Positions 1,664 to 59,213 of a stretch of 64,000 nucleotides of DNA are shown here, piece by piece. The stretch lies in assembly GCA_963555755.3 (NCBI GenBank), contig OY820905.2:2496001-2560000 (forward strand), in the 5' to 3' direction. The stretch is from Nitrospirales bacterium. GTDB taxonomy: Bacteria; Nitrospirota; Nitrospiria; Nitrospirales; UBA8639. Positions within the stretch are counted from its first letter, which is position 1, and each line of letters begins with the position of its first letter. The translations under genes were made by a program, and so were the position numbers. A model generated the notes under the pieces. The model saw only the letters and a list, made by a program, of their open reading frames with translations, did not search any database and was not told where the DNA came from.

Positions 1664-2858
1664 TTACGCATCACACTTCTGAATCATCACAGCCAATGCT
1701 TCGCCTCCGCCAATGCACAGACTAGCAATACCCAATCGCCCTCCTCGGGCCTCTAGCGCGTATAACAGCGTGGTGAGAATCCGAGCCCCGGTTGCGCCGA
1801 TGGGGTGTCCAAGTGCTACCGCGCCTCCATTCACGTTGACTTTAGATGGATCCAACCCAAGCTCCCGGTTCACCGCCAATGCAACGGAACTAAACGCCTC
1901 GTTGATTTCAAAAAGGTCGATTTGATCAATCGTATGGCCGGTTCGCTTGAGAAGATTTCGTACGGCATCCACCGGAGCGATGGTGAACCACTCAGGGGCC
2001 AATGCAGCTCCGGCATACCCCACGATTCTCGCTAGCGGCTTCATGCCTCGGTTAATAGCTACCTGTTCTTCCATGACCACCATGGCGGCAGCCCCGTCGT
2101 TGCAAGAGGGGGAATTGCCCACGGTCAACACCCCGTCGTCCTGAAACGCGGGTTTCAAGAAAGGCATTTTTTCCAGATTGACCCGATTAGGTTCTTCATC
2201 GTCGATCACAATGACCGGGTCTCCTTTTTTTGTGAGGAATTTCTACCGAGACGATTTCGTTTTTGAATGCCCCTGAAGCCATGGCCATTCGAGCCCGGCG
2301 ATAACTCTCTAGAGCAAACTCATCGGCTTCTGTGCGCGTGATGCCATATTTCTTTGCGCACAGCTCACCGCCATGTCCCATGTGAAATTGATTGTACACA
2401 TCCCATAACCCATCTTTGATCAGACTGTCCTCAAGTTCGCCGTGGCCCAGTTGATACCCCTGGCGTGCTCGCATGAGCAGATAGGGTGCGTTGGTCATAT
2501 GCTCCATCCCACCAGCCACGAAAATACTTCCGTCCCCCAGTTGAATGTGTTGGGACGCCATGATCACGGTTTGCAAACTCGATCCACAGACTTTGTTGAC
2601 GGTGGTGGCTCCGACGGAGTGAGGGATTCCTGCTCCGATCGATGCTTGTCGAGCTGGAGCTTGACCAAGACCAGCTGCCAACACGCATCCCATGAACACA
2701 CTGTCTACATGCTCCCCGGGAAGATCGATTCGTTTTAGGGCTTCCGCGATGGCCACACTTCCTAGCTTGGTGGCTGACAGGGGACTGTAGGCCCCACTAA
2801 AACTTCCCAGGGGAGTTCTGACCGCACTGACGATGACGGGCTGGTTTTGTTTGTTCAT
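1664..2858 (-). pseudogene. Acetyl-CoA acetyltransferase (thiolase), split by a +1 frameshift in an A7 run at 2225-2231 (possibly a sequencing error)
   Basis: N-half has VSAVRTPLG and NKVCGS; C-half has EINEAF, GHPIGATG and SLCIGGG. Removing one A gives the continuous read IPHKKGDPVIVIDDEEP. Confidence 0.85.
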
Positions 2859-2865
2859 AGTGGCT

Positions 2866-4023
2866 TCACCACTCCTGCGACTCGATAGATTGTTTGACCT
2901 TCTGCATGAATTGATCCGCCATGGCTCCATCAATCATCCGATGATCAAACGATAAACTCAGATAGGCCATGGGTCTGATTGCAATCGCATCATTGATGGC
3001 CACGGGTCGTTTTTGAATTGCGCCTACACCCAGGATGGCCGTTTCGGGTTGGTTGATGATGGGGGTCCCCAATAGACTTCCCGAGCTGCCATGATTGGTA
3101 ATGGTAAACGTGCCTCCCTGAACCTCATCCGGGATGAGTTGCTTGGATCGAGCGCGTTGAGCCAGATCGGCGATGTTCTCCCCTAGTTGAGACACGTCTT
3201 TTTGATCAGCATGACCGATCACGGGCACCAAGAGGCCATCGTCAAGGGCGACTGCAATCCCAATGTTGATATGATTCTTCATGACGATACCGGTATCACT
3301 CCATGACGAGTTCACCTGAGGGTAGGTTTTCAAGGCCTGTGCTACGGCTTGAACAACAAATGGTAAGTATGTGAGCTTGAGATTTTTTCGAGTGGGTTCG
3401 ATTACTGAAAAATCTACTTCAAAAACCGTGGTGACATGGGCGGCTGTCCGACGACTATCCATCATCCGCTCAGCGATGGTTTGCCGCATGGTCGTCAATG
3501 GAATCACGGTATCCTGGGAAGTATGATCTTGCCCAACGGACTGGCCTTTCCCATTGGCGGAAATCTCTGTGGTATCCTCTTTGGTGGCTATGAGCGCGCG
3601 AATATCTCGTATGGTGATACGTCCTTCTCCACCAGTTCCTTGTATTGTAGAAAGATCCACGCCATGTTCTTTGGCTAAGTGTTTGACGGCGGGAGAAAGA
3701 TGGAGATGGGGATCCGAGTCAGGTGGGATGATCTTCTCTGAATCCTTTTTCCCGTTGGACGTTGGTTGCGGAGCGACGTTGGAAGACTCGACGGCCAAAC
3801 GGGCAATGGGTGTTCCCACCGGAACCGTTTCCCCTTCCTGGATCAGAATTTCCATGAGTGATCCGCATTCAGGCGAGGGAATTTCGAGGGCCACTTTGTC
3901 CGTTTCCACCTCCAATAGGGCCTGATCCTTTTCCACATGGGCTCCTGTGGCCACGAGCCACTTCAAAATGGTGCCTTCGGCAGTGCTTTCACCTAATTGG
4001 GGCATGATAATATCTGTCGCCAT
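2866..4023 (-). CDS. 2-oxoacid dehydrogenase E2, dihydrolipoamide acyltransferase (likely branched-chain type)
   Basis: Lipoyl domain VETDK, E3-binding GTGGEGRI, catalytic SFDHRMIDG. Confidence 0.93.
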   Translation of the reverse strand: MATDIIMPQLGESTAEGTILKWLVATGAHVEKDQALLEVETDKVALEIPSPECGSLMEILIQEGETVPVGTPIARLAVESSNVAPQPTSNGKKDSEKIIPPDSDPHLHLSPAVKHLAKEHGVDLSTIQGTGGEGRITIRDIRALIATKEDTTEISANGKGQSVGQDHTSQDTVIPLTTMRQTIAERMMDSRRTAAHVTTVFEVDFSVIEPTRKNLKLTYLPFVVQAVAQALKTYPQVNSSWSDTGIVMKNHINIGIAVALDDGLLVPVIGHADQKDVSQLGENIADLAQRARSKQLIPDEVQGGTFTITNHGSSGSLLGTPIINQPETAILGVGAIQKRPVAINDAIAIRPMAYLSLSFDHRMIDGAMADQFMQKVKQSIESQEW

Positions 4024-4043
4024 GTCTGCCTCCGTCTTTCGGA

Positions 4044-4186
4044 CGTGATGCGTGATGCGTAATGCGTGACCCGTAAAGAATGAAAAACTTCTAGTCTTTT
4101 CGCATTACGCGTCACGCATTACGCCTCACGTTGTTTTCCTCTTGTCTTTACACTTCACGTATCACGCATCACGCATCACGCGTTAC
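4044..4186. repeat. Heptamer tandem repeats (CGTGATG/CGTAATG and reverse complement) in inverted blocks
   Basis: cgtgatg cgtgatg cgtaatg cgtga...cgcatta cgcgtca cgcatta cgcctca...tcacgca tcacgca. Similar arrays at 541-620, 1621-1676, 11946-12020, 12793-12862 and 13820-13885. Confidence 0.8.
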
Positions 4187-4197
4187 GTTTTCCCCTC

Positions 4198-5187
4198 TCA
4201 ATACGTTGCCAATTGACGAGCCGCTCGAAGCACATCATCGACCTTTGGTAAAAAGAACTCTTCCAATGGAGGGCTATAGGGAACTGGTGTATCAGGAGCG
4301 GCGATTCGAAGAATGGGCCCATCCAGGTGATCGAAACAGTATTCACTGATCAACGCGGAGATTTCCGCCCCAATGCCTCCGGTTTTCGTGGCCTCATGTA
4401 AGACGATGACCTTGCTGGTTTTCCGAACCGACTCCAGAATGGCTTCTTGATCCAATGGCAAAAGCGTGCGCAGATCCACCACTTCGAGGTCGATAGCTTC
4501 TTTTTCCAAGATTTCCGCCGCTTCTAAAGCCAGAGGAACCATGGCGCCATAAGTGATGACAGATATGTCGCGACCCGTTCGTTTGACGTCGGCTTTCCCA
4601 ATAGGAACGATGTAGTCCTCTTCTGGCAGCACTTCCTTGGCACGACGATACAGGTATTTATGTTCAAAATAGATCACGGGATTGTCATCGCGAATGGCGG
4701 CCTTCAGCAGACCCTTGGCATCATAGGGTGTGGATGGGGCTACAAGTTTTAAGCCCGGCGTATGGAAGAACCAAGCTTCGGGACAGACTGAATGGAACGG
4801 TCCGCCATGGATTCCCCCTCCATAGGGCGCCCGAATGACCATCGGAACAGCAGCACCCCATCGATAATGATTCTTGGCGGCAACCTCGGTGATTTGATCA
4901 AACGCGCAGGAAATGAAATCAGCAAATTGCATCTCCACCACCGGACGCATGCCCATCATAGCTGCTCCAATCGCGGCTCCAACAAACCCTGATTCCGCGA
5001 GTGGCGTATCCAGCACGCGCCATTCACCGAACTTTTTTTGAAATCCCTCGGTGACACGAAACGCCCCGCCATAAGGGCCAATGTCTTCTCCAAGAAGAAA
5101 CACTCGCTCGTCTCGGCTCATTTCTTCGTCTAAGGCTTGTGAGATGGCTTCTAAATAGGTCACTTCCTGAGAGATCGCTGTGGTCAT
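4198..5187 (-). CDS. 2-oxoacid dehydrogenase E1 beta subunit
   Basis: GEDIGPYGGAFRVT, DTPLAESG, EMQFADF, GGPFHS, VDLRTLLPLD. Confidence 0.94.
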   Translation of the reverse strand: MTTAISQEVTYLEAISQALDEEMSRDERVFLLGEDIGPYGGAFRVTEGFQKKFGEWRVLDTPLAESGFVGAAIGAAMMGMRPVVEMQFADFISCAFDQITEVAAKNHYRWGAAVPMVIRAPYGGGIHGGPFHSVCPEAWFFHTPGLKLVAPSTPYDAKGLLKAAIRDDNPVIYFEHKYLYRRAKEVLPEEDYIVPIGKADVKRTGRDISVITYGAMVPLALEAAEILEKEAIDLEVVDLRTLLPLDQEAILESVRKTSKVIVLHEATKTGGIGAEISALISEYCFDHLDGPILRIAAPDTPVPYSPPLEEFFLPKVDDVLRAARQLATY

Positions 5188-6221
5188 ACATGTACCTCCT
5201 CAAGCGTCTCAGCATAGACGCCATCCAATGTCTCGGAGCCTTCAGGGAGAGGACTCTCTTCAGCGAACTCCACCGCGGTATCAATTTCCTTTTTCACTCG
5301 TTCTTGGATTTCCATCAATACTGATTCATCCGCGTAGCCCATGGTTTTCAGAGCATATTCAACTTTGAGAATGGGATCTCTGCGTTTCCATTCTTCCAAT
5401 AACTCACGAGGGACGTACTTGGCGGAATCGTGCTCTGCATGGCCATGCATTCGCATGGTTTTGCATTCAATGAAGGAAGGCCCGTGCCCTTCCCGCGCAC
5501 GTTTGATCACCCGCTGAGCTGTGACATACACCGCGGCGACGTCATTCCCATCGATAATTTCACTGGGGATGCCATAGGCCTTGGCCCGGTCTGCCACGTC
5601 GGGAGTTCCCATCTGAAGCTCAAGGGGCGTGGAGTAGGCATATTGGTTGTTGCAGCAGAAAAAGACCACGGGAAGTTTGCGAACCGCGGCGAAGTTGAGG
5701 GCTTCATGAAAGTCGCCACGGCTTGTTCCGCCATCTCCGGTATTCGCCACGACTACCTGAGATTGCCCTCGGATTTTAAACGCGAGAGCGGCTCCCGTGG
5801 CAAGAGGGAGGTTGTCAGCCAGATGGCTCACAAAGGCAAAAATTCCCCGTTTTAAATCACCCATATGCACGTTGGCATCTTTTCCTTTGGTGGGGCCTGT
5901 GCGTTTGCCCAGGTATTGAGCGAGGATTTCTTCAGGCTTCATGCCACGAATCAGAAACGCTCCCATGTCGCGATGCATAGGGGCGATGACATCGCCAGCC
6001 TCAAGCGCGTACGCGTACCCAACAGAAATGGCTTCCATTCCGTGGGAGGTGTACACTCCACCAACAATTCGACCTTGTCGGTAGAGTGCGGTCACTCGAT
6101 CTTCAAGGGTTCGTGTGAGGCAGAGGTAATAGTACAGTTGAAGGTAGTCAGCTTTTGACACCTTACTGAAGGGCTTCCTTCTGTCCTCCGGGCTGTCTCT
6201 TCGTTCTATGTCCATACTCAT
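5184..6221 (-). CDS. 2-oxoacid dehydrogenase E1 alpha subunit (TPP-dependent)
   Basis: TPP motif GDGGTSRGDFHEALNFA...CNNQYA and RMHGHAEHD; 4-bp overlap with E1 beta. Confidence 0.94.
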   Translation of the reverse strand: MSMDIERRDSPEDRRKPFSKVSKADYLQLYYYLCLTRTLEDRVTALYRQGRIVGGVYTSHGMEAISVGYAYALEAGDVIAPMHRDMGAFLIRGMKPEEILAQYLGKRTGPTKGKDANVHMGDLKRGIFAFVSHLADNLPLATGAALAFKIRGQSQVVVANTGDGGTSRGDFHEALNFAAVRKLPVVFFCCNNQYAYSTPLELQMGTPDVADRAKAYGIPSEIIDGNDVAAVYVTAQRVIKRAREGHGPSFIECKTMRMHGHAEHDSAKYVPRELLEEWKRRDPILKVEYALKTMGYADESVLMEIQERVKKEIDTAVEFAEESPLPEGSETLDGVYAETLEEVHV

Positions 6222-6244
6222 TATTTGTACCTCCTTGCGGTGAT

Positions 6245-7954
6245 CTATCCCTTCACCACAGATTCCTTAAAACATTTGTCACGGTATGCACGTAATGTTT
6301 CTGATAGTCGCGATTTCAGTTCCAATCGTTTTGGTTTTCCCGTGGCGGTGTACGGGATATCGTCACCGAACAGAATGACTTTGGGACATTTGGCGAATGG
6401 GAGTCGGCTTTGGCAAAACTTCATGATGTCCGATTGAGATGGCGTGCTGGCTCCTTCGTGAATAACCACATATCCGGCTATTTCTTCGCCGTAAAAGCGG
6501 TTTTCGAATGGCACGGCCATCGCGAATTTGACTGAAGGATGTCCCCGGAGGACCTCATCAATTTCCAGCGGAGAGATATTCACCCCTCCTCGAATAATCA
6601 GTTCCTTGATCCTTCCCGAAATAAAGAAAAATGGACGGCCCTGTTGATCCCGCACAAAAAATCCTTCGTCCCCTGAACGGAACCAACCCCATTGAAACGC
6701 GGCCTCGTTTGCATCCGGGCGCTTGAGGTATCCAGAGCAGATCGTTTGGCCTCGAATGCAGATCTCACCTCTTGTTCCTTCCGGGACTGAGTGCCCTTGC
6801 CCATCCAGGATGGCCATTTCATTGTGGTGAATAGGCACGCCAATGGAGGGAAACTCATAGTGGGTCAGCCAATGATGGTGCTCCTCGGCTGATAAGTCAT
6901 TTGGTAAAAAACAGGAGTAACACGTGGTTTCTGACAGTCCATAGCCATGACGAATAGGAACCTGGAAGTGGTTTTCGAAGTGTGTCGCTGTTTCTTTTAA
7001 TAAGGGCCCTGCACCGCAAATCAGTCCGCGAAATCCATTCAATTGAAAAGGTGCATAATCTGTTCCGGATTCGAGTAAGAATTCCAACAGTGTGGGTACC
7101 ACACTGGCACACACCACATGTTCCTCTTGCACTCGTGACCAAAATACACCCGACTTGAATTTTTTGTTGAGGACGGCTTTCCCTCGGAAGTAGAACGGGG
7201 TGATCAGGGTGACGACGATACCATTCACGTGGTGAATCGGGAGGACGCACATGAGACAATCACCTTGCCCAAATCCGTGCCATTGGGTAATGGCGTCGGC
7301 ATCGATGAGAAGATTTTCCATGGTGAGTATGACGCCCTTTGGGGGGCCTGTTGTTCCGGAGGTGTAAATGATGAGCGCTTCATCCTCTATTCGGTCTTTC
7401 CAAGTCGGGGAAATAGGTTTCGCTTGAGATAGGTTCTGGGTTAGTGCACAACGTTGGGGATCATCCAAAACTAAGATGGCTTCCTGAAGGTATGGCAGTT
7501 CATCGATAAATTCCTGAATTTCATCGTAGGCATCACCCCAGCAAAACACGACCGACGCCTCTGAGTGTTCGAGGATATACCGTTTCTTGTCAGCGGATTC
7601 GGCAATGTTGATGGGGACGATAGTGGCACCTAAAGTCCAGACCGCAAAGTAAATCAAAACGGTTTGGTCATGATTGAATAACACCGTGGCAAGACGATCC
7701 CCTCGCTTGATGCTCAGTCGATCACGGAGAACCGAGGCCATTTTTGCTACTGCCTCGCCAAATTCCCCATAGGTGTAGGTTCGGTGGACCAACTGATCAT
7801 CGTCGTGGTAACTCAAAAATGTGTGTTGCGAAAGTTGTAGATCGTGAACTCGTTCGTAGAACAGACCAGAGAAAGAGGAAAAGGGAAACTGGTGAGGTGG
7901 CGTACAACTTTGATGCGCTCCCATGATGCTGTCCTCAATGGTGGTGGAGGTCAT
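6245..7954 (-). CDS. Class I adenylate-forming enzyme (acyl-CoA synthetase/AMP-ligase)
   Basis: IIYTSGTTGPPKG, GYGLSET, RSGDEG, GRIKELIIRGGVN, TATGKP. Probable start MTSTT at 7954 overlaps the upstream stop (TGATG). Confidence 0.9.
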   Translation of the reverse strand: MTSTTIEDSIMGAHQSCTPPHQFPFSSFSGLFYERVHDLQLSQHTFLSYHDDDQLVHRTYTYGEFGEAVAKMASVLRDRLSIKRGDRLATVLFNHDQTVLIYFAVWTLGATIVPINIAESADKKRYILEHSEASVVFCWGDAYDEIQEFIDELPYLQEAILVLDDPQRCALTQNLSQAKPISPTWKDRIEDEALIIYTSGTTGPPKGVILTMENLLIDADAITQWHGFGQGDCLMCVLPIHHVNGIVVTLITPFYFRGKAVLNKKFKSGVFWSRVQEEHVVCASVVPTLLEFLLESGTDYAPFQLNGFRGLICGAGPLLKETATHFENHFQVPIRHGYGLSETTCYSCFLPNDLSAEEHHHWLTHYEFPSIGVPIHHNEMAILDGQGHSVPEGTRGEICIRGQTICSGYLKRPDANEAAFQWGWFRSGDEGFFVRDQQGRPFFFISGRIKELIIRGGVNISPLEIDEVLRGHPSVKFAMAVPFENRFYGEEIAGYVVIHEGASTPSQSDIMKFCQSRLPFAKCPKVILFGDDIPYTATGKPKRLELKSRLSETLRAYRDKCFKESVVKG

Positions 7955-8712: not shown

Positions 8713-8859
8713 AGTCACCTCCTCGGTCCTGAAAAGATCCTTCTTTATTGGCTACTTTTTTGAGGGGCCTTCTTGCCTTGCCAAGAAAGCCCCTGAGAGC
8801 CACTTTGGTTCCAGGATGTCTTGAAAACTCGCCAAATTGGTATCCCTCACCCTAGGCCT

Positions 8860-9065
8860 TGCCATTATTTATAATTTCGGTTTTATTATATTAATAATAA
8901 AATTTAATTATCCTATCATTTTTTTCAATATAACGATCAATTATGCTATGTTTTATGACGTATATGCTTATTGTAAATAATTACTCTAAATTTAATGATT
9001 GCAATACCCGATAAAAAATAATAAACTTTTATTATTAATTATAATATATTATTATCATGAGAGTC
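8860..9065. promoter_or_regulatory. Very AT-rich divergent promoter region between the two catabolic operons
   Basis: About 200 bp of almost pure A/T with the imperfect palindrome TTTTATTATATTAATAATAAAA (8881-8902), lying between divergent start codons. Confidence 0.55.
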
Positions 9066-9242
9066 TACCAGTCGCAACAGTTTTTTTCTATGACAGATGG
9101 GTGAGGAATCGCCCGATACGGAAAGATAGGTGCCTCTACCCAAGGCAACCTAATCATGGATTGCACCAAACGTTCGGCAAAGGAAAAACAACACCCAGTG
9201 TGGAATGAGTTACGACAGAACACATAATGAGGAGGTAGGCGT

Positions 9243-9815
9243 ATGGCAGGCACACTCGGCATTGATCACATAACGCTTTGCGTCCCTGATCTTGGGGCGG
9301 CGGAGTTCCTATTCAATCAGGTGCTCGGGTTTCACACTATTTGGTCTGCTCAGGATGTAGGGACGGAAAAATCCAGCATGGATACTATTGTGGTCCAACG
9401 GGATAGCATCAAAGTCGCGTTGATGCAGGGCAATGACAAACAAGAAAAGTCACAAATCACAGACTTTGTTGAACGATATGGTCCGGGGGTTCAGCATGTG
9501 GCCATCGAAGTCGATGATATCGAGGCTGTGTCCAATGAGTGGGAGGACCAAGGGGTGAAATTTTCTGGGCCAATCAAGGAGGGGAAAGATGGTTTTGGGC
9601 CCCTGAGACAACGATTTACTTGTCCCCTCTTTCCCGGCAGTGGAGTGTTTTTTGAACTCACTCAACGTCAACATGGGGAAGAAACATCGCGGACGTTTGT
9701 CAAAGGAACCGTGGAGTCCTTGTATCGTGACATCGAAAAGCAACAATCAGCCGGAGTTGGAGATACCATCATTGACTATAGTCGCCAGCATCAATGCGTG
9801 GATAATGAGAAATAG
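9243..9815 (+). CDS. VOC-family protein resembling the catalytic C-terminal domain of 4-hydroxyphenylpyruvate dioxygenase
   Basis: IDH..., SQITDFVERYGPGVQHVA..., FFELTQR..., LYRDIEKQQ give the His-His-Glu triad. Directly upstream of hmgA. Confidence 0.75.
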   Translation: MAGTLGIDHITLCVPDLGAAEFLFNQVLGFHTIWSAQDVGTEKSSMDTIVVQRDSIKVALMQGNDKQEKSQITDFVERYGPGVQHVAIEVDDIEAVSNEWEDQGVKFSGPIKEGKDGFGPLRQRFTCPLFPGSGVFFELTQRQHGEETSRTFVKGTVESLYRDIEKQQSAGVGDTIIDYSRQHQCVDNEK

Positions 9816-44964: not shown

Positions 44965-46960
44965 GTAGGGTCGAGGACTGGCGCGCCAACGGTAGGGTTC
45001 GGTGGCTCCTCCACCCCTTTCGGAATGGGCCTCAGTCCGACTCCCCTGGTCACGGTTCCAGCCCCCGCCACCTCAAACCCGGCGTGCTGATTTCCAGCAC
45101 CGGGCTTTCCTGGATGCTTCACCTCAAGGGTTATGTGACCTATCGGTCTGGAAGTGCTTTCATGCCGACCCGCTGTACCGCACTCGGTAATCTCCATATA
45201 AGCCGAGTACCGTGTAGAGCCAAACCTTACTCCACCTCTTCCAGCCAAAACCTCGACGGTGGCGCACTCGCATCATGTGCCGCCGGACCTTCCGCTCCAC
45301 CCAATCCTTCACGTAGGATAAACACCGACTCGCATGCCCAATCCGAAAGTCGTTCACCCAGCCCCGTACGATCGGATTGATCATCGCGATCATCCGTCCC
45401 ACCGGCTGGGATTGCCCGCGTCGGAACACCTCCTTGAGCTTCCGCAGCAACGCGGTGCGCCGCTTCACCTTCGGTATGTACTGCGGGCGCCACACCCCAC
45501 GTCGCGACCGCACACGCCGGAAGTCAAAGCCCAAGAACCCGAAGCTCCCTCCCTGACTCAGGTCCACGATCCGGCTCTTCTCCTCATTCACCTGAAGGGC
45601 TCATTGGGCCAACGCCTCTCGCCGCTTCCGCTCCGCGACCTGCGCCAGTTGTGCGTGGCGGCGATAGCCATCCACTAACACGACGAGGTCATCCGCAAAC
45701 CGGGCATACTCGAGATACGTATACTGGCCCTGCCGGGTTGTCTCCTTCAGCTGCTCCAGCATCTCATCCACTTCCGTGAGATAGAGGTTGGCCAGCAGCG
45801 GGGAAATCACACCCCCTTGAGGCACCCCACGCGGGCCGGACGCCTTGACGATGAGTTTCACCAGCCGCAGGATCGCGGGATCCTGGATGCGTCGGGCCAC
45901 CTTCGCCAGCAGCCGGTCATGCCGCACCGTGTCGAAGAAGGCCGCCAGATCCACATCAATCACTCGCGTCTTGTTCTGCACCATCGCCTGAGCCACCCGG
46001 CCAATCGCCTGATGGGCTGTTCGTTTCGGTCGATACCCATACGACCCATCACGAAAATCCGCCTCAAAGATCGGTTCCAGCAGGAGCTTGAGCGCTCCCT
46101 GTACCACGCGGTCCCGAATCGCGGGTATCCCTACGACGCGGACTCGTCCACCGCCTTTCGAAATCTCCACGTGCCGGTTCCGCATCGGTCGGTAGGTCTG
46201 CGTGACCAGTTCGTCCCGTAGTCGTGCAAGAAAGGGCTCCACCCCCGTGGCCTCGATGACCGCAAACGTCACCCCATCAATGCCGGGGGCTCCGTTGTTC
46301 TTCTTCGCCATCGCATAGGCCGCGCGTAGCGTCGCCTCTTTGCACACGTGGATGTACAGGCCCCACACCCGCCATCGCTTCTCAGCCTTCGCCTTGACGT
46401 ACAGCCGCTGTCGCAGGTCTTGCAGTGAAATGGACGCCGTTGTCATCTCGTCCCTGCCTCCCATGTTGATCGCAGCCTACAGCCAGTAGGGCTCCTTTGC
46501 TCCACAGGCATTACCCTGTTTCCTCGCTCCTACGAGCCCCTCCGCCACCCTCTCGTCTTCGGCTCACTTCCCAGAGAGCTGGTTATAGAGCCGAAATCTT
46601 CCTCCAGGGATTTCTCCCTGGGACGAGGAGGGCTTCTCCAGTTGCGTCGTCTGTCCTTGCTCCCGTGCTGTCGCTCTCACCCCGCCGGAGTGGCCAGGCG
46701 TCTCAGCCTTGGTTCGCCTGTCCATGCCGTCTTCGTCCTACGGTCAGGGACTCGACCTCCGAGGTTTCATATTTTCGAGGCTACCACTGCGTTCACTTTC
46801 GTTACGGCCCGGGAACTCGCTTACCATCCCCGACGATGGCTTTGTCGATGGGCTTCAGCGTCTCGGTTTCTCTCCACGCTGCCATCCAAGCTACAGGGCT
46901 CAGGCTCTTACCCTGGTGGGCTTGCTTCCCACTGAACAGTCTCGCCTTACCTGGACACAC
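44965..46960 (-). mobile_element. Inner group II intron (twintron) inserted at the 3' end of the outer intron's domain V
   Basis: 5' GTGTGTCC; domain V AAGCCCGGTGCTGGAAATCAGCACGCCGGGTTT; domain VI ends CCCTAC. Confidence 0.85.
45160..46446 (-). pseudogene. ltrA: Group II intron reverse transcriptase/maturase (no endonuclease domain) with an in-frame TGA at 45601
   Basis: GAPGIDG, IPAIRDRVVQ, PQGGVISPLLAN, RFADD, FLGF; the reading frame continues past the stop. Confidence 0.88.
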
Positions 46961-47618
46961 AACCGTGCGTATGGTTTTCCCATACACGGCTTTCCGATGT
47001 TCTTCTTCCAGCGGCATGCGTCTGTCATCAGGCAATAGCCAAATTCAGACTTGGCCTTCTGAGATAGTTTCCTCTGTAGTGTCCTGATCGTGCTCGGGGT
47101 GGTTAGCGCAATGGCAATCCCCTGATCCTCCACTCGTCGGAAACGTGAACAAAGTAGGGTCCCTTCCCTCGGGCCGGGTTGTGTTGTCCCAGGCTCTCCA
47201 ACGGTACGATGAACCCCTCCGACTCCCACGACGGCCCGCAGCGATTTCGGTATCCCTTATACGCCTCAGTTGCTGGTTCTGCGCCAGCACCGTCGCGGGT
47301 CTCCCGTCCTGCACGGTGTCTCTTCCGCCACATGCCATCCCTGCTACCCCGGAAGATCCTGAGGGTGGGTGTTCGTTCTGCTCCCTCAGACAGCGGCCTT
47401 CCCCTTCTGACCACAGGGTCGGCATCTCCAATTCGTTTACGAGGCTACATCTAGGTTCGCTTGCGCTACGGCCTGCGGCTTCGCCCATGGGAAACTTCAA
47501 CCCCTGATTACTCAGACGCCGCTTCCCGGTACTAGAAAGGTGTACGAACAACTCCTTTCGCGGGACTTCAACCCGCGAGACACACCGCCGATGACGGCAT
47601 GCGGTCAGACCCGGTTTT

Positions 47619-50882: not shown

Positions 50883-51287
50883 TCAACCAGTTTGGGCAGA
50901 TTTTTGCTCGTAAAACCAACCGAAGTACACTAATAGGTCACGCAGGGTGACTATCCCGATCACTTTCCCTGCTTCACGGACAACCAGATGACGGACCCCA
51001 AGATCTTTCATCATTTCAAGGGCATTCTGAAGGCTGTTGGTTCCCTCGATACTATGGGTAGGGGAGGTCATCACATCCTTTGCGGTAGTCGTCGCGAAAT
51101 CCTTTCCGTGAGCCACCACTTTTCCAATGATATCCCATTCGGTCACTATTCCAACAATTTCTCCATTCCATTCTACGAGAAGAGCGCCTACTCGATGATC
51201 ACGAAATTTTTGTGCTACCTCAACGATTGATGTTTGAGCCTGAGTTTTTTTGAGATACCGGCTCATGACCCGGGAAAGTGTGGGCAT
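50883..51287 (-). CDS. CBS-pair protein
   Basis: VGALLV..GIVTEWD..VRHLVV..GIVTLRDL. Confidence 0.88.
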   Translation of the reverse strand: MPTLSRVMSRYLKKTQAQTSIVEVAQKFRDHRVGALLVEWNGEIVGIVTEWDIIGKVVAHGKDFATTTAKDVMTSPTHSIEGTNSLQNALEMMKDLGVRHLVVREAGKVIGIVTLRDLLVYFGWFYEQKSAQTG

Positions 51288-51446
51288 GGATGTTTAAACC
51301 TTTATGGTTGAGAATTCCTGCTTCTCAAAAAAAACTTATGGGCAATTTCCCAACACGGTTACAATGAAAAAGAGTATTCGGCGTCAAATCTTCAAAACCG
51401 AAATAACCGAATGTCGAAGGTACCCTGGGTGCAATCCGGGCTTTTA

Positions 51447-51605
51447 AGGGTTCGCGCAAGAATAACTTCACATTTGGGGGTGTTGAGACGCCTGTCTGGC
51501 AAGGCGCGAGGACTGCGCATACTCCTCGTATGGAAGGGACGAGCAACGCCGCCAGACGGGATGGATCGACGCCCAAAGATGTGAAGTTATTCTTGCGCGA
51601 ACCCT
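51447..51605. repeat. MITE-like repeat family D copy 2; overlaps the stop codon of the YHS gene
   Basis: Reverse complement of 35103-35261. Confidence 0.85.
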
Positions 51606-52017
51606 AAGTTTCGGTGGAACAACACCCCGCCTGGCCGAATACGCCTTCGTAAGGGATCTCACCTTGTAATCGTTTGACGTAATGATCAGGATCCTTTTGA
51701 AACACTTCCGGACAATACGGGCATCGGCAAAAAAACACGTCCCATCCCCGGATTTCCATGCGCACGGTCCACTGTACCGGTTTTTCCGCTAAACAGGTGG
51801 GGCACACAACGAGGTCACGGGTTTCCTGAAGGTATTTTGAAGGTTCCTGATCAAAAAGATCGGCGCAACCCTGGCAGCAAAAGAAATACTCTTTGCCTTC
51901 GTAGTGGCTTGTGGCCCAGCGATCCGCTCCGATTCCCAATCGGATCAAAGAACAACCACAGGTGGGACAAATGGAAGTGACTATTGTTTTTGCCGAGCTT
52001 GAGAGGTCACTTGTCAT
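51604..52017 (-). CDS. Cys-rich tandem YHS/TRASH-domain metal-binding protein
   Basis: CPTCGC...YEGKEYFFCCQGC..F..EPSKY and CPTC...FFCRCPYC..F..DPDHY; C-terminal GCC. Confidence 0.8.
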   Translation of the reverse strand: MTSDLSSSAKTIVTSICPTCGCSLIRLGIGADRWATSHYEGKEYFFCCQGCADLFDQEPSKYLQETRDLVVCPTCLAEKPVQWTVRMEIRGWDVFFCRCPYCPEVFQKDPDHYVKRLQGEIPYEGVFGQAGCCSTET

Positions 52018-52195
52018 TGCTTTGGCCTTTTTCTTTTTCACTCAATTCAGCGTAACCTGATGATTCCTTTTTTTTGGGAAATAAATCCACCACGAAATCA
52101 ATCAGTGATTGCAATTTGCTTCTCGTGCATTCACAGGCTTCTTCATCAGAAACGCTTTCTTCTTCTACCTTGTCCCAATCCACATATTTTTTCAT
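52007..52195 (-). CDS. Small acidic protein coupled to the HgcA-like gene (not a ferredoxin)
   Basis: 62 aa, ATGA overlap with the upstream stop, one CxC, no CxxCxxCxxxC. Confidence 0.55.
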   Translation of the reverse strand: MKKYVDWDKVEEESVSDEEACECTRSKLQSLIDFVVDLFPKKKESSGYAELSEKEKGQSNDK

Positions 52196-53061
52196 AGCAA
52201 CAACGTGCCTCCATACACCAGAGCCAAAAAAGCGAATATCCCGGCAAAAAGCTTCCCGGACTTCTGATTTTGCCCTAAATGTGAATGACCTTGCGCATCA
52301 TAGCCAATATAGGCGCTCAAAGCCATAATTCCCATGGAAGCCTGGATTTTCAAAACCGGGTCTGTTTCGGAAGTCAATATAAGAGCCAGCACCGGCAGGG
52401 AAAGCACTAGCCCTTTGTATAGCAATCTATCTATCGGAATAAAATGCTCAATTAATTGCATGCTGAAAGCAAAGTACCAGACTAAAGCAATTCCTTGAAT
52501 CCACCAATCGGAAGCGAACATAAGTATTGGGAGAATACAGACTAACGTGCAGAAAACGGCATGACTGAGACCCATTTTAAAACGCTCCCAATACCCATAT
52601 TCTAGTGCCTGCATATCCTTATTTTTGGTCAACCCATTATTTAAAAAATCCTTTAAATCAGTAAAATACACCGGGCCATATATGCCTTCCCAGCCTTGCT
52701 CTTTAAGAGCTTTTCTTTTGATTCCAGACGCGGACAATTGCGGCAGTATTAACCGATTATGATTGACCCGTTCCCCTACATTGTAAACCTTCAAGTGGGA
52801 AAGAACTGTTTCGGCTGTAAAAATACGTTCGGCAGCTGCACACCAGACATTGGTTCCGTTTGTATTGACGACTAAAAGAAAACAATCTAAAGCCTCTTTT
52901 TCCAGATATTCCTTGAGATGTCTCACCGTATAATCGAAATTACAGGTGACGAGAATAGGGGAAGATTTGTCTGGGTTGCCGATAGCCACTGTTTCAGGTT
53001 CACACGGAAATCGGACAAATCGAAAAAGGGTTTGATAGATGTCTTTAATCCAGCCAATCAT
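52192..53061 (-). CDS. hgcA: HgcA-like corrinoid-binding membrane protein
   Basis: GNPDKSSPILVTCNFDYT, cap helix GTNVWCAAAE (canonical G[IV]NVWCAAGK), LILPQLSASG, GPV..DL..FL, followed by several TM helices. Confidence 0.82.
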   Translation of the reverse strand: MIGWIKDIYQTLFRFVRFPCEPETVAIGNPDKSSPILVTCNFDYTVRHLKEYLEKEALDCFLLVVNTNGTNVWCAAAERIFTAETVLSHLKVYNVGERVNHNRLILPQLSASGIKRKALKEQGWEGIYGPVYFTDLKDFLNNGLTKNKDMQALEYGYWERFKMGLSHAVFCTLVCILPILMFASDWWIQGIALVWYFAFSMQLIEHFIPIDRLLYKGLVLSLPVLALILTSETDPVLKIQASMGIMALSAYIGYDAQGHSHLGQNQKSGKLFAGIFAFLALVYGGTLLL

Positions 53062-53690
53062 TTTTTAATTTCTAAAAGAATAAACATGCCCAACATAAAT
53101 GATTTGCAGTTGACTATGGTCATACCCGCTTCCCGAACATCATCATCAAAATTGGAAATCGCGTTGGTTGTGGTTTGAGTGATAACCCAAGTAAGAAGCC
53201 GCATAGGTAACCTGAATGCATAGTACAAACATTTGGCTAAAATATTTTCTGGAATCATTTCATCGCCAATAAGAACTTTCCCCCCATTTCTTAAAATTCT
53301 TTTGATTTGCTTCAATACATGAATCCGTTCCGCGCGAGTCAGTTCGCTGAAAGCAAGAGTGCTCAAAATAATATCGAATGACTCATCTCCTAAATGCTCA
53401 TCGAGGTTACCAAGGCTAATATTCAGGTAGGTTGCTGAGGGCGAATTTCTCTTTGCCACAGCAAGCATGCCGCTATTGGCATCCACGCCCGTCACCACGG
53501 CTCCTCGCTCGATACACATTTGGGCCAGAGTTCCGGTGCCACAACCCAGATCGAGAACTTGATTTCCGGGGTGAATGTGTTCGGCGATTTGCATTTTAAT
53601 TTTCGTCAACGTTCCCAGAGTCAAAAGACTCATCCCTAGATCGTAACGTTCAGGACGGGATTCAAGAATTTTCATGTACACAAACGACAT
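53058..53690 (-). CDS. Class I SAM methyltransferase (UbiE-like, corrinoid-protein-associated type)
   Basis: MSFVYMKILESRPERYD, VLDLGCGTG, GVD, FDIILSTLAFSEL; ATGA overlap with the hgcA-like start. Confidence 0.85.
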   Translation of the reverse strand: MSFVYMKILESRPERYDLGMSLLTLGTLTKIKMQIAEHIHPGNQVLDLGCGTGTLAQMCIERGAVVTGVDANSGMLAVAKRNSPSATYLNISLGNLDEHLGDESFDIILSTLAFSELTRAERIHVLKQIKRILRNGGKVLIGDEMIPENILAKCLYYAFRLPMRLLTWVITQTTTNAISNFDDDVREAGMTIVNCKSFMLGMFILLEIKK

Positions 53691-53814
53691 TAAAAAGACC
53701 TTCAACAAGTATTCAGAGTTTAAAAAACAAGAATAGTTGTAAACTTGACCACCCAAACCGTTGATCCTAAGCCTATAATGCAAATAGACTTTATGCGTTT
53801 CCCACACCTGCTTA

Positions 53815-55856
53815 GGACCCGCGAGAAAATAACTTGATCAATATCGCGCCAAGATTTGGGTCGGATTTGGACGGAACGATTGAGAAAAACTCGAGGCATA
53901 GCACAGCTATGGTGAGGGTTTTTCGATTGAGGCCCGTTCAAAGATGGCCCGACGGATCTTCCCCCGAGTTTTGGGCGGATTTTTGGCTCTAACCTTTTGA
54001 TGTCATTGAAGAAGTCACGGTTTGGGCGAGGCCACGTCTCTGCCTACACATGCACCTTGGCTGGCCGTGTGGTGGTGGCAGGCGGGGTGATCCCCAATGC
54101 GGCAAAGATGGTTGCCTGCCTAGCATCGGGGCGAGCCAGCTGAAGCACCTCCTGCCCGCCGATTGCATGGCGTTGGAAACACAATCGTGACAGGGCCCCC
54201 AGGGCGTCTTGAAGGGTCAGCGCCTGGGCGCTCTGCTCCGTCGTCCCAAACGCCTCCTTCAGGCCTCGCTCGCCTTCCCGGGCCACTTTCAGGGCGAGCA
54301 TCGCGGCAAAGACATGGCCACGCGTGCGGCTCTCCTTCCGCACAAAGATGGGGCGCAGTTCGAGCAAGCCCGTCTTCATCGTCCGGAAGTCGCGTTCCAC
54401 CCGTTGCAGGTCCCGGTACCGGGCATCCACCGTCGCGGCATCCATCGTGTCCCGAGCCACATCGGTTTCCAGCACCGAACAGCCATCCAACAGGGCCGCC
54501 TCGGCCTGCTTGGCCTCATCAATCTCGACCACAAGCTGGGTCCCCTGCAGGGCGAGGGTGGTGAAGGCGGAGAGCTTGTGCTTCTTGGCCCACTGGGTCA
54601 GCTGCCGCTGTCCCGCCGCCGGGGTGGCCCGCTTGGCCTTCTGGACAAACGCATTGCGCGCCGCGACCTTCTGCTGCAGTGTGGCCACTTTGTCCTGACG
54701 TCGCGTGGCCACCGTGTGGCGCAACGCCTCATTCCGCCGCAGGATCAGCCGACGAGACCCATCCTCCACTTCCTGTATCGTCTCATCAAACAAATTGAGT
54801 TGGAGCACATCTTTCTTCAGCAAGGTGCGAATCTGCGGGTCAGTGAGGGCGGTGAGGGCGGTGAGGTACTTGAGTCCCTGCTCGGTGAGGGCCGCCTTGC
54901 CTGCGGCTTTCACCATCCCCCGATCCCCCACACACACGACGTCGGTGATCTTGAACTGGGTCTTGATCCGTTCAATCTGCTCGGCGACCGTGCGGGGATC
55001 CGCCGTATTCCCCTTGAACACCGTGACGGCCAGCGGCTCACCATCCGGCCCTGTCAGCAACCCAATCACAATCTGCTTCTTGTGCTTCTTGCCGTCCCGG
55101 TTATAGCCATACGCCGCCAGCTCATTCTTCTCCCCCTCAAAATAGGAGGAGGTCACGTCATAGAGCACCAAGACCGGTGGCTGGCCGGTCCGCTGGACAG
55201 AGGCCCGATACAGTTTCTTCTCGATGGCTTCTTGTTGGATGCCCAACCAGTCTAAGGCCTCGTACAGGTCATTCTCGTCAAAGGCGGGCAATCCCAACAC
55301 CTCAGCGACCGCATGATCGGTGGCCCACCGCACGGCTGACAGCCGCGAACCCTGATGAGCCACTCGTGCCAGCACCAGGAACAGGGCGAGCTTGGCTACT
55401 CGTTTCGGACCCAAGGCCGACACCACTCCCACCCGTTGGGCCACCGCTTTCAGGGCGAAGAGGACGCCAAAGATCCGATCACTCACGGGGCCCGCCTCGT
55501 CTTCCGTTCCATCGAAATCCCCACGGAGGCAGCGCTTGAGCGCGTCTACGCGAGCCGGAGGCCACGAGGTCAGATTGGCCAGGGTCCGGGTCTTCACCTT
55601 GCCGCCCGCTCGGTAGCTTTCGCGCAATAAAATGGCGGGCGGGGAGGTGCGGTTAGGAACGGTGGCGATATACATGCTTTATGTATAGCATAAATAAAGC
55701 ATTATAGTCAAGATAAAACAACAATTACATGCCTACATTACAGAGAGCAATCCAATCTTTCCCTGAAGAATTCCAACAGCTTAGGTGGCAAACATGGGGG
55801 GAAGATCCGCCCGAAGATTGGATGCGAGATTGACCAAGTTATTTTCTCGCAGGTCC
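53815..55856. mobile_element. ~200-bp MITE-like element, itself interrupted by IS1634
   Basis: About 30-bp TIR GGACC(C/T)GCGAGAAAATAACTTG(A/G)TCAAT; TTA duplicated at both flanks. Confidence 0.72.
53963..55798 (-). mobile_element. IS1634-family element, transposase ORF 54044-55675 (ends approximate)
   Basis: LLRESYR..GKVKTRTLANL, LYDVTSSYFEG, GYNRDGK, VGDRGM, VERDFRTMK. Confidence 0.9.
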
Positions 55857-56106
55857 TTACTCTTAATATGTCTTCAGAAACGGAACTCATTTCGCAGCAT
55901 TCCTATAATTTTCCGTCCACGGCGATCGCGGGAATCCTTTCAATTCCGTACAGGGCCGCCTTATGTTGAATGTCCTTATTAGGGTCCTTGGTTAAATCAT
56001 AAATAACGACCTCACACGATGGACAAGCCAAACTTTTCACAAGGTCCACCGTTGACTCACAAATGGGACAACCACTTGTAAAAACCTCAACAGTTCTTTT
56101 TCGCAT
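55857..56106 (-). pseudogene. Thioredoxin/glutaredoxin-like protein with an internal TAG and its 3' end cut by the MITE
   Basis: VEVFTSGCPIC..ACPSC..IPAIAVDGKL*ECCEM; an AGVGNA* tail lies beyond the insertion near 53790-53811. Confidence 0.7.
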
Positions 56107-56161
56107 GATGTGGTCTCAATTATAAAAGTGATAATTATTTCAAATTCATAACGGAATATAT

Positions 56162-56872
56162 TTAAGCGGTGATACTTTTTTTATGCTCTAAATAAAATTC
56201 TTTCATCTCTTTGTTAGCCGATATCGTGGTTGCAAGGTTTGTCAAGAAAGAATCTATTTCTTTGCAGTTGAGTGTGGCCAGAATGTGGTCATCACTGACT
56301 TCGGTGAAAGTCCGCATTCCAGTGCAACCTAAGGACATGCCAAAAGGCGAATTATCCAAGGTGGTTGGAATCACCGCGCAAGCCGGACGACCCAACGCCA
56401 TGGATTGCATGCTTTCAGACCATTTGCAGCATCCCAAAACTTCGTTGTAAATCATCGCCTGTGAAGGCTTTAACCACATCAGGATCAATTGGGGCTCAAC
56501 CGGAAAATCTTTTAACGGTCCATACACCACACCAGCTTTTTTCTCTTTAATGGTTGGGATATGTGCTGGCTCATCTTCTGACAGGTAAGAACATTCACAC
56601 ATTTTTTTCACCAAACCACCCAGTTGTTCCTGTACCTCTTTGGGCATCTCGAACCCCAACACCATGGCTCCTATCGGACAGTTAAAATGCTTGGCTGCCG
56701 GCGCATAGAACGTTTTTTTCTCTGCGACTCGCCAAAATGTACAGAACGAGGGGAATTCGCCTTCGATAGACTCCACTCCCTGCGGTTGATCATCAACAAG
56801 GGCCATCGCTACCGGGGCAATTTCAAGCCCAAATGCTGATGTGATTTCCTGATTCGTTTTTGCATTATCCAT
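56162..56872 (-). CDS. DUF169 family Cys-containing protein
   Basis: PVAM..SFCTFW..NCPIG..YGPL..PACA..SLGCTGMR. Confidence 0.75.
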   Translation of the reverse strand: MDNAKTNQEITSAFGLEIAPVAMALVDDQPQGVESIEGEFPSFCTFWRVAEKKTFYAPAAKHFNCPIGAMVLGFEMPKEVQEQLGGLVKKMCECSYLSEDEPAHIPTIKEKKAGVVYGPLKDFPVEPQLILMWLKPSQAMIYNEVLGCCKWSESMQSMALGRPACAVIPTTLDNSPFGMSLGCTGMRTFTEVSDDHILATLNCKEIDSFLTNLATTISANKEMKEFYLEHKKSITA

Positions 56873-56947
56873 GTTCGCCTCCCAAAACTAGGGTTTTAAA
56901 GGGTGGGTAATTCCTATCGCACCATTGATAATTTTTAAACTTGCTAT

Positions 56948-57110
56948 TCCCCGTAGCTAGCTACGGAGTGACCAATGAGGCCTGCCCTGAGTCATATCGA
57001 AGGGTCCCCCCTTTGGAAAATCCCCCCATCCCCCCTTTTGCAAAGGGGGGCAAGGGGGGATTTAGGATTCCGATTTTCCATTAAATACCCCGTCAGCTTG
57101 CTGCGGGGAT
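56948..57110. repeat. REP-like palindrome cluster between merR and DUF169
   Basis: CCCCGTAGCTAGCTACGG, CCCTGAGTCATATCGAAGGG, CCCCCCTTTTGCAAAGGGGGG, CCCCGTCAGCTTGCTGCGGGG. A related CCCCCCTTTGGAAAAGGGGG motif occurs at 62875-62928. Confidence 0.6.
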
Positions 57111-57150
57111 CTTCATATCGCTTAGAGGCTCTTTCAAAAGAAAAAGTTTT

Positions 57151-57561
57151 TTATAGCTCTCTCCCTGATTCGAAACTGCAAAGGATGGGACAGTCGCCCG
57201 TGAGCGTTGCTTCTTGGCATTGGTGAATCATTTGCTTTAAAACCTTTTTCATAGAGTTGAGGCCTTTGATTTTCTGATCCACTTCGTCCAGTTTTGTTTG
57301 CGTTTTTGCCAAAACCGATTCACAACTTTCGTTTTTTTTAACCCGCAATTTCAGAAGTTGCAGAATCTCATTAAGCGTGAATCCCAACTTTTTCGCATTT
57401 TGAATAAAACGAATTCTGGCGGCATCTTCCTTGGAATAGAGTCGATAACCGACTTCGGAACGTTTGGGAGGGTCGATCAGCCTCCTCTTTTCGTAATACC
57501 GCAACGATTCGATATTGACCCCGCATTCCTTTGCCAATTTACTTCGTGTCATCGTCACCAT
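57151..57561 (-). CDS. merR: Hg(II)-type MerR family regulator
   Basis: wHTH LAKECGVNIESLRYYE, GYRLY, LGFTLNEI; three Cys positioned like MerR C82/C117/C126 (ESCE, QCQE, DCPIL). Confidence 0.88.
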   Translation of the reverse strand: MVTMTRSKLAKECGVNIESLRYYEKRRLIDPPKRSEVGYRLYSKEDAARIRFIQNAKKLGFTLNEILQLLKLRVKKNESCESVLAKTQTKLDEVDQKIKGLNSMKKVLKQMIHQCQEATLTGDCPILCSFESGREL

Positions 57562-57581
57562 ATTTTTCTCCTAATGTATAG

Positions 57582-57613
57582 AACCTACACCCTGTACCAC
57601 AGTACAGGGTCAA
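57582..57613 (-). promoter_or_regulatory. MerR-type promoter/operator
   Basis: Minus strand TTGACC-20 bp-TAGGTT with the dyad ACCCTGTAC-N4-GTACAGGGT spanning the over-long spacer. Confidence 0.88.
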
Positions 57614-57626
57614 GGGGAAATTAGGA

Positions 57627-59213
57627 CCCAAGATCCGCGATGGGTTTGGTCAACAGAGGTCCTTTGGCAAAACCCACGTGTTCGCGCCGTTGCTTAGTCA
57701 ATGGTCTGGCTGGATTTGAGCCACCTCCCAGAGTTGCCTGTCCTGACATGGGATCGACCAGCCTTTTGGGCAGACCACTCCCTTCCTGCTTCCTTCTTCT
57801 CTTGTGCTGTCCCCTGCCCCGGCTTAATAAGGCTGGGCAGCTTCTGCACAGCGCGTCCGAATCTCCTCACACAAGCCCCACAGCTGTTGTTGCACTTTGA
57901 GGATCACGGCACCAGCATGCCGGACCACTTTGCCCGCCACCTGATACAGCCGCCAACGCACCGTGCGCACTTGGCACTGGCTCCAGGCATAGGGCAACGC
58001 CAACAACTTGAACAACACAAACAGGTTGTAGGCTAACACGCCAATGCGAAAGAAGACGGCATTGGCCGCGAAGGTCCCACACGGAAGCCGTTCCATGCCA
58101 AAGCCACTCTTCAGTTCTTTGATGCGATTCTCGCTGGTCTCGCCCCGCTGGTTGTACCATCGTACAATCTCCTCAGGGGTTCCATCTCGGTTCGTCGCAA
58201 TCAGCGTGTAGCGCAGGCTGGGGGCCTCGGGGGCAAACAGATCCTGTTGCACGGGCCGTCGCAATACGATGAGGCGAAAGGCTTGCTTGGTCTTCGCCAT
58301 ACAATGTACCGTTTCAGCGAGATGGCCATCTCGGTAGGGTTGCCACTGGCTCTCAGGGATGGCGGCAATGACGGCCTGCACGGCCGTATCCTGCACGCCC
58401 CCAATCGCAAACGTCACGTTGTGCTCCTCGCACCAATTGAACAACTCCGCTTGGTACGCCGCACTATCCGCCCGCACATGAGCAATCCGTTTGCCTTTGG
58501 GCATCTGCGCCGCACACGCCTGGGTGAATTCAAGATTGCGGGACGCCGGAGCCTCATTCCCTTCACGAAACTCCTCCCCAAGCACCAGCCCATTTTCCGC
58601 CAGGTGCCCCAGCATCGGCAGATAGCCTCGCTCCCCCTTGTACGTCCATTTGGCTGCCTGCTTCTCCGCGACAATCTGCGTGGCATCAAGATCGAGGGTA
58701 TAGTCCGTGCGCGGTTCCCGCTTCAACGCCCGCCGGATCTGCTGCTGATTGACGACGGCTAAACTTGCTAAACCATCCTTCTCCCCCATGCGTCGCAGCC
58801 AATCGCCCGTGGCATCGGCACTGGGAACCACGGGGAGTCGCAGCACGGCCCGCAAGCCCGCATCCTCGCGAATCTGGCGCAGATCCTCCAGCGTCCGGCC
58901 CCCGCCATGCAACATCAGCAGCAGGGGCTCGACAAATTGGGCGGGGTGATAGCCGATGCGGCTCCCGGGCGCGGGCAAGGCCGCATTGAGTTGCCGGGGC
59001 ACATTCATGGCTTGGAGAAACTCCCCGAACAGCGCCAGCCCGCCATGAGCGGTGAGCTGTTCGTCGGTGGGCTCAAGCTTGAACGGAAGAACGGTTTGTG
59101 GCATCATTCGTTTCACCTCGTTGGTGAGGAGTGGCTAAGGGGGTGGGCACCCGTATCTTAGCAAATCAACGAGGTTTTTTTATGCCCAAAATAAATCCAT
59201 CGCGGATCTTGGG
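57627..59213 (-). mobile_element. IS1380-family element, intact transposase 57824-59116
   Basis: 17-bp TIR CCCAAGATCCGCGATGG; 5-bp TSD TAGGA; LTAHGGL, LDLDAT, RADSA, YNQRGETSENRIKELK. Confidence 0.92.

Follow-up and report, generated by a model that had tools for sequence, protein, structure and literature searches.

Background

Genes resembling hgcA of the mercury methylation pathway are known from Nitrospina, where Villar et al. (bioRxiv 10.1101/648329) described merR1, ubiE, DUF169 and YHS genes beside them and proposed a regulation induced by mercury. All Nitrospina lack hgcB and the function of their hgcA-like genes is unconfirmed (Lin et al., PMC10083202). Carriers among the Nitrospirota have been listed, including the isolate with locus L003 of our comparison (PMC12484752), and according to a paper from 2026 no isolate with Nitrospina-type hgcA-like genes exists (PMC12874090). 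Here, we present a computational analysis of such a cassette from a genome recorded as Nitrospirales bacterium (G000), located in a stretch of 64,000 nucleotides (nt) of contig OY820905.2 (positions 2,496,001 to 2,560,000), which is called the window in the following. An earlier note on this DNA had pointed to the Nitrospina precedent, which the preprint of Villar et al. confirms; the novelty it had attached to the gene set and to mercury induction is lost, both being in print. The locus is a further example of the described Nitrospina cassette, in a damaged copy and a new host lineage.

The resemblance to the Nitrospina cassette extends to the protein clade, the window HgcA-like protein being 74-94% identical to its best 42 full-length matches, to the merR, ubiE-type methyltransferase, DUF169 and YHS neighbours, to the lack of hgcB and to the hypothesis of mercury-induced expression. 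In contrast to that cassette, the host is likely a member of the Nitrospirales and not of the Nitrospinota, merR is co-oriented, and the copy is split by insertions and shows an Arg79 in the HgcA-like protein, a broken glutaredoxin-like gene and a cysteine-depleted small protein.

Canonical HgcAB (NF040863, NF040864) moves a methyl group from S-adenosylmethionine (SAM) onto Co(I) (PMC11588087). It shares with the cassette in the window a CdhE-like corrinoid domain, the cap-helix cysteine, a membrane domain and SAM as the likely methyl source. Unlike the canonical system, which uses SAM directly and has a motif ending in AGK, the cassette has a motif ending in AAAE, no HgcB, and a dedicated methyltransferase gene with a MerR operator. 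The fused HgcAB-like proteins with CpaM (NF043039, NF043040) are the closest outgroup by score and, with weak support, by tree; CpaM is encoded directly upstream or fused, and DUF169 is nearby in three of four such metagenome loci. They differ in that the window protein lacks a C-terminal ferredoxin, the cassette adds a 62-aa and a YHS protein, and control is by MerR, not by ArsR as in the loci seen. With classical mer operons (merRTPA, merB) the cassette has in common a three-cysteine MerR and a long-spacer operator, and merT and merP join it in some relatives, whereas the enzymes it encodes are not a reductase but a methyltransferase together with a corrinoid protein. Compared with the published work, our analysis strengthens the case for a mercury regulon and for a methyltransferase that belongs to the enzyme. 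Searches of the openly accessible literature turned up no paper that deals with the shared operator, the CpaM fusions or the 62-aa protein.

Regulation and conservation of the cassette

The MerR-type promoter and operator is located at 57582-57613 on the minus strand and consists of a -35 box TTGACC, a 16-bp palindrome, a 20-bp spacer and a -10 box TAGGTT. Its layout is exact and was matched in 0 of 100 shuffled sequences, which bears out the operator that had been read in the 20-bp spacer upstream of merR. A scan of the whole genome for such operators returned three loose sites, two good, both of the latter above a merR gene; a general promoter and terminator scan, with 20-bp spacers beyond its scoring, did no better than on shuffles. 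The MerR-family regulator is encoded at 57151-57561 on the minus strand. Its best NCBIfam match is TIGR02051 MerR with 127 bits (cut-off 150.85), ZntR reaching 116-122 bits. It contains Cys80, Cys115 and Cys124, whose spacing is, by the Tn501 numbering, that of mercury-sensing MerR. Two features of mer control, a three-cysteine regulator and a long-spacer operator, are present here.

For comparison, 74 Nitrospina-type loci were gathered from two sets (20 of 23 and 54 of 62 loci, the remainder being of the canonical or fused types). Neighbours were counted in loci with enough flank, and the counts are not independent, since many loci are near-identical kin. The CpaM gene lies directly upstream of the hgcA-like gene in 68 of 68 loci; downstream, the 62-aa gene follows in 60 and the YHS gene in 58 of 61 loci, a ferredoxin gene in none of the 61. 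A merR gene is found within 3.2 kb upstream in 36 of 37 loci; DUF169 occurs in 34 and glutaredoxin in 14 of the 37. The synteny of the methyltransferase, hgcA, YHS and merR set is therefore conserved in the neighbourhood survey that the earlier note had suggested; glutaredoxin, which it had counted as a needed part, is carried by those 14 of 37 relatives and broken here. An operator of the window type or of a divergent type occurs in 30 of 37 related loci, and the regulators belong to a co-oriented and a divergent MerR subtype, both of which have three cysteines.

In several relatives the cassette stands in the company of mercury genes. In locus L110, the palindrome at the head of the cassette recurs unchanged in front of a neighbouring merR-merT-merP-merA operon, whose MerA passes the cut-off (544.6 bits, cut-off 454). 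The cassettes of L016, L018 and L099 enclose a merT gene, accompanied by an HMA gene in L018, and a merR-merT-merP set follows the cassette in L067. The operator and the conserved merR linkage support the proposed MerR control, and induction of the cassette by mercury through a MerR that senses Hg(II) is, judged from these sequences, likely.

The methyltransferase and the corrinoid protein

The corrinoid protein-associated SAM methyltransferase CpaM (210 aa) is encoded at 53058-53690 on the minus strand with an ATG start at 53690. It passes the cut-off of NF043040 (251.9 bits, cut-off 180), and its gene overlaps that of the adjoining HgcA-like protein by 4 nt. All 18 longer homologues (18/18) are fusions of a methyltransferase and an HgcA-like protein, 3 with and 15 without a ferredoxin; when eight were scanned for CpaM, three were over the NF043040 cut-off and five scored 113-140 bits. 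In a survey that scored seven candidates per genome, CpaM was over the cut-off in 4 of 401 genomes of the phylum, and these are the very four that encode a fused or Nitrospina-type protein; it was over the cut-off in 0 of 20 genomes with hgcA plus adjacent hgcB. The functional coupling of methyltransferase and corrinoid protein that had been proposed is supported by the gene fusions, and CpaM likely methylates the corrinoid. Several of the single-chain methyltransferase-HgcA-like proteins (P0121-P0138) are named from Asgard archaea.

The Nitrospina-type HgcA-like protein (289 aa, PF03599) is present, with its NVWCAAAE cap helix, at 52192-53061 on the minus strand as described before. It consists of a CdhE-like corrinoid domain and a C-terminal helical hydrophobic domain. 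Cys74 in N(V/I)WCA, the motif of the cap helix, is invariant, as expected from canonical HgcA. The AlphaFold model (predicted local distance difference test, pLDDT, 92) predicts a CdhE-like corrinoid-binding fold with a helical membrane domain, and its best Foldseek matches are an HgcA model (E 2e-11) and the corrinoid iron-sulfur protein CFeSP (root-mean-square deviation 1.5-1.8 Å over about 125 residues). The family shows additional invariant residues (C20, C40, C60, H167, C171, C175 and H261), and dN/dS values of 0.06-0.24 indicate purifying selection. Profile scores are 228 of 285 bits for NF043039 (fused HgcAB-like) and 130.5 of 275 bits for NF040863 (HgcA), and the protein has no ferredoxin domain with CxxCxxCxxxC as the fused type has. 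It is not a canonical HgcA, since its motif differs, its score stays under the profile cut-off and HgcB is missing.

Descent was examined with two quickly computed trees based on the corrinoid domain. The Nitrospina-type clade of 289-aa proteins, to which the window protein belongs with 80-94% identity, has support 100 in both, and the protein stands apart from CdhE, so that the clustering with CdhE-like paralogs which the earlier note had named as a counter-argument was not seen. Grouping of the clade with fused HgcAB-like proteins is weakly supported (SH-aLRT 80 and 90), and grouping with canonical HgcA is not rejected by the approximately unbiased test (p 0.42). A sister operon, L131, consists of arsR, a merB-like gene, cpaM, an hgcA-like gene, a separate gene for a 2[4Fe-4S] ferredoxin and merTP. 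In L131 (positions 1961-7471, genome G533) and L130 (G535), this ferredoxin has 70 aa and bears CGECGAC; both operons are intermediate between the fused and the ferredoxin-less forms, and could be scored as hgcAB, rightly or wrongly.

The remaining proteins of the cassette

All seven genes named in the earlier note are present on the minus strand according to the list of open reading frames (ORFs) and the Pfam and NCBIfam profile searches. Their common orientation thus stands, but the run is not contiguous, as a 2-kb insertion that the earlier note had overlooked splits it. The overlap reported for the last four genes was measured as 4, 4 and 11-35 nt.

The 62-aa protein (52007-52195, minus strand) has an invariant CECTRS motif and no match in Pfam or NCBIfam. 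Descent from HgcB as a remnant was rejected as homology (hhalign probability 0.1). A search of longer proteins gave five matches; in one of them the 62-aa and YHS proteins are fused, perhaps through a frameshift. The cysteine-rich YHS-domain protein (51604-52041, likely start 52017, minus strand; PF04945, 48 bits) contains 13 cysteines and is a candidate metal chaperone. It had been described as a double-YHS protein; one stretch is significant in Pfam, while the second repeat is degenerate. The DUF169 protein (56162-56872, minus strand; PF02596) has six cysteines that are invariant in the alignment and is a candidate metal or redox protein. Its predicted structure is poor (pLDDT 50), and a search for a solved structural relative found none, the Atlas returning DUF169 clusters only.

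Host genome and distribution

The 16S rRNA of the host matches the Nitrospira probe exactly, with one mismatch to the Nitrospirota probe and two to the Nitrospina probe. This pattern makes the Nitrospirales the likely host lineage. The cassette is found in 2 of 41 close genomes and, among 401 genomes of the phylum, in that of the window only; of 120 Nitrospinota genomes, 15 have it as well, and two more have distant forms. The GC content at third codon positions of the hgcA-like gene and cpaM is within the lowest 5% of long ORFs, and the cassette was likely acquired horizontally, as far as composition and distribution tell. Among the 17 carriers in the Nitrospinota set, 16 have no MerA over the cut-off, many of these genomes being incomplete.

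The absence of hgcB that was noted for the window extends to the whole genome, which is 99% complete: hgcB was over the NF040864 cut-off in 0 of 5 genomes, the best score in the host being 36.8 of 99 bits. No merA, merB, merT or merP is present at the locus, as the earlier note had it. Throughout the host genome, merA was also not over the cut-off (best 375 of 454 bits), but a merT-like remnant lies outside the window; the genome search for merB was negative and weak, as no control genome gave a match. No RACo activator was found in the genome. It contains three small ferredoxin-like ORFs and an intact MetH.

The merT-like remnant belongs to a second site (G000:C1:2257178-2258135, outside the window) with a MerR operator, merR, a glutaredoxin-like gene and the merT-like gene, which ends early after about 50 codons. 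The site has no merA and lies behind an operon resembling heavy-metal efflux of the resistance-nodulation-division type. The classical mer locus of this genome looks broken too. A membrane protein with CLxNAxRCGRTHC and a GDCCVxC protein (L067:3569-3952 and 8727-9352) recur beside merR, merT and the cassette, and a copy is also found at G000:C1:2259984-2260364.

Proposed function and alternative explanations

Mercury methylation by a MerR-switched cassette of CpaM and the HgcA-like protein is the best explanation of these sequence data, with a probability of roughly 0.45. We infer each chemical step of the following mechanism. MerR would sense Hg(II) and switch on the cassette, upon which CpaM would load a methyl group from SAM onto the cobalamin predicted in the HgcA-like membrane protein, and this protein would pass the group to mercury. 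The YHS and 62-aa proteins would hand over the metal through their cysteines, electrons might be provided by a housekeeping ferredoxin or by DUF169, and CpaM would pull corrinoid reduction forward as in the reactivation of methionine synthase. Methylmercury as the product would be a way of getting rid of mercury that is independent of MerA.

Several observations weigh against this explanation. No dedicated reductant was found, the genome offering neither hgcB nor the RACo activator, and the 62-aa protein is without homology to HgcB; turnover of the canonical enzyme needs two low-potential electrons from HgcB as well as HgcB cysteines (PMC11588087). Organisms with fused HgcAB that were tested made no methylmercury (PMC10087281, PMC4646819), and canonical methylation is not induced by mercury and has no known benefit (bioRxiv 2022.10.17.512643). 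The cap helix continues as AAAE-R and departs from the high-stringency motif ending in GK (criteria in PMC10087281). The MerR proteins remain under the TIGR02051 cut-off for mercury-sensing MerR, with scores near ZntR in the window; no cobS was found in the genome, so that B12 must be salvaged; and in the fused relatives L059 and L060 the regulator is ArsR. A merB-like gene beside the methylase, as in L131, would oppose methylation, and the core occurs without merR in L020. The confidence is held at the given value because the reductant is missing and the fused relatives were negative.

Unlikely, though it survives best among the alternatives, is a cassette that is induced by mercury and makes something other than monomethylmercury from Hg(II). 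Its proteins might act on organomercury or thiol-bound mercury by a second methylation to a volatile form, by demethylation or by corrinoid-mediated reduction, or they might methylate or repair thiols damaged by mercury. The regulatory evidence and the mer neighbours fit such a cassette equally well; the merB-like gene within the same operon in L130 and L131, the fused relatives that yielded no methylmercury (PMC10087281, PMC4646819) and the extra invariant cysteine and histidine residues of the family are in its favour. However, a SAM methyltransferase suggests donation of methyl groups and not their removal, and the merB-like protein is weak, matching only the first 69 of the profile's 126 positions.

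That the cassette senses and methylates a soft metal or metalloid other than mercury (Cd, Pb, Zn, Cu, As, Se or Te), the nearby mercury genes being part of general metal islands, is improbable. The divergent MerR subtype scores alike as CadR/PbrR (113), MerR (112) and CueR (111), the fused relatives are under ArsR/SmtB, and L003 lies beside genes for copper efflux and a multicopper oxidase; against this stand the operator identical to that of the true merA operon in L110, the merT insertions into the cassettes of three loci, and the three-cysteine spacing, presumably that of mercury-sensing MerR. An organic substrate of the CpaM/HgcA-like pair (such as a halomethane, thiol or terpenoid), with capture by MerR regulons and no action on mercury, is just as improbable: the core of L020 beside a peroxiredoxin and a linalool-dehydratase-like gene without merR, the common archaeal fusions and a preprint on halomethane dehalogenation by HgcAB (10.64898/2026.04.26.720869) fit it, but the MerR linkage in 36 of 37 loci persists despite the swap of regulator subtype and orientation, and purifying selection is strong.

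If mercury methylation by CpaM and the HgcA-like protein is accepted, the cassette becomes a candidate for the origin of methylmercury in seawater rich in oxygen. That CpaM and the ferredoxin-less HgcA-like protein evolved as a mobile resistance module, replacing MerA in aerobic nitrite oxidizers and offering a second, mercury-inducible route to methylated mercury, is a possibility we regard as somewhat doubtful; if true, it would be the first case of purposeful mercury methylation and might account for the methylmercury of oxic subsurface seawater. Nitrospina-type hgcA-like genes dominate surveys of hgcA in the ocean. The evidence narrows the candidate gene set to CpaM, the HgcA-like and the 62-aa protein, then YHS and DUF169, plus the inducer, which is one explanation why assays with hgcA only or without induction could miss an activity. 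A positive result would change the account of marine methylmercury, and a negative one would strike a large share of the putative ocean methylators. As test objects, the intact relatives are better than the damaged copy in the window.

State of the copy in the window

An intact operon, as assumed before, does not exist in this genome, where IS1634 and a miniature inverted-repeat transposable element (MITE) interrupt the cassette and the glutaredoxin-like gene is broken. The MITE of about 180 bp (53815-55856, TTA target repeat) is split by IS1634 (53951-55809, co-oriented with the cassette, 5-bp target repeat), whose transposase of 543 aa (54044-55675) scores 327 bits on NF033559 (cut-off 100). 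The left part of the MITE has 118 genome matches of at least 100 bp. Upstream lies an IS1380-family element (57627-59213, minus strand) with a target repeat of 5 bp, whose end is 13 bp above the -35 box; its transposase (57824-59116) scores 338 bits on NF033539 (cut-off 180), and seven near-identical copies exist in the genome. The contigs of four DNA-like sequencing runs were compared, out of seven runs holding at least 97% of the words. Empty-site joins appear for IS1634/MITE in runs X5 and X7 and for IS1380 in X1, X3 and X5; since the former is skipped in two and the latter in three of the four runs, both insertions are recent and not fixed. In the IS1634 transposase, a 9-nt duplication at 54843-54851 is missing from the contigs of all four runs.

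A further insert of about 170 bp between merR and DUF169 (56943-57111), with a hairpin of 23-bp arms at 57018-57063, is not present in L063 and L003. L063 is the orthologous locus, with the same upstream flanking gene, 95-97% DNA identity and none of the insertions. The glutaredoxin-like gene (55860-56106, ORF 55903-56106, minus strand), identified by Pfam and by comparison with relatives, has a premature TAG (55903-55905) after codon 67, compared with 89 aa in relatives; the stop is also found in runs X1, X3, X5 and X7. The MITE and IS1634 are inserted in its 3′ end, near the natural end.

In the HgcA-like protein, Arg79 directly follows the cap helix, where 72 of 72 loci spanning the motif have Gly (two of the 74 loci, in which the motif is not covered, were left out). 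Among 54 database proteins, this position is Gly in 51, Arg in 2 and unread in 1. An assembly error was rejected as the source of Arg79, the contigs of the four runs agreeing with the window. The 62-aa protein lacks its last cysteine and the C-terminal Cys-Cys pair kept in 51 of 61 relatives. Both proteins may be impaired, the one by Arg79 and the other by the cysteine losses. General gene decay was rejected for the hgcA-like gene, with 16 synonymous versus 2 non-synonymous changes on this branch. The copy is probably weakened or silent, as in this allele the insertion lies between the promoter and the four genes of the catalytic side. RNA runs gave contigs of low depth that cover portions of the cassette but as such do not show transcription, and two runs recorded as RNA had no contig over the middle of the hgcA-like gene.

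Further observations

In the Methyloglobulus record L020 (4833-9034), cpaM, the hgcA-like gene and a small gene follow a peroxiredoxin gene and a linalool dehydratase/isomerase-like (Ldi-family) gene; merR, DUF169 and YHS are all missing. In the Chloroflexota record L021 (1610-1963), an hgcA-like gene with 95% identity extends over only 114 codons before unrelated sequence sets in, and the Flavobacteriales record L010 is a contig of 3.6 kb with 86% identity to Nitrospina copies; both records may be assembly or binning errors.

Downstream of the cassette, a short repeat at 51440-51611 of the window abuts the stop codon of the YHS gene and has 174 genome matches of at least 100 bp. A CBS-domain gene (50883-51287) has a 96%-identical copy at G000:C1:980174 and lies outside the cassette in relatives. 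At 45601-47569, pieces of a group II intron (two Rfam matches) are accompanied by a reverse-transcriptase-like ORF of 287 aa, which looks truncated.

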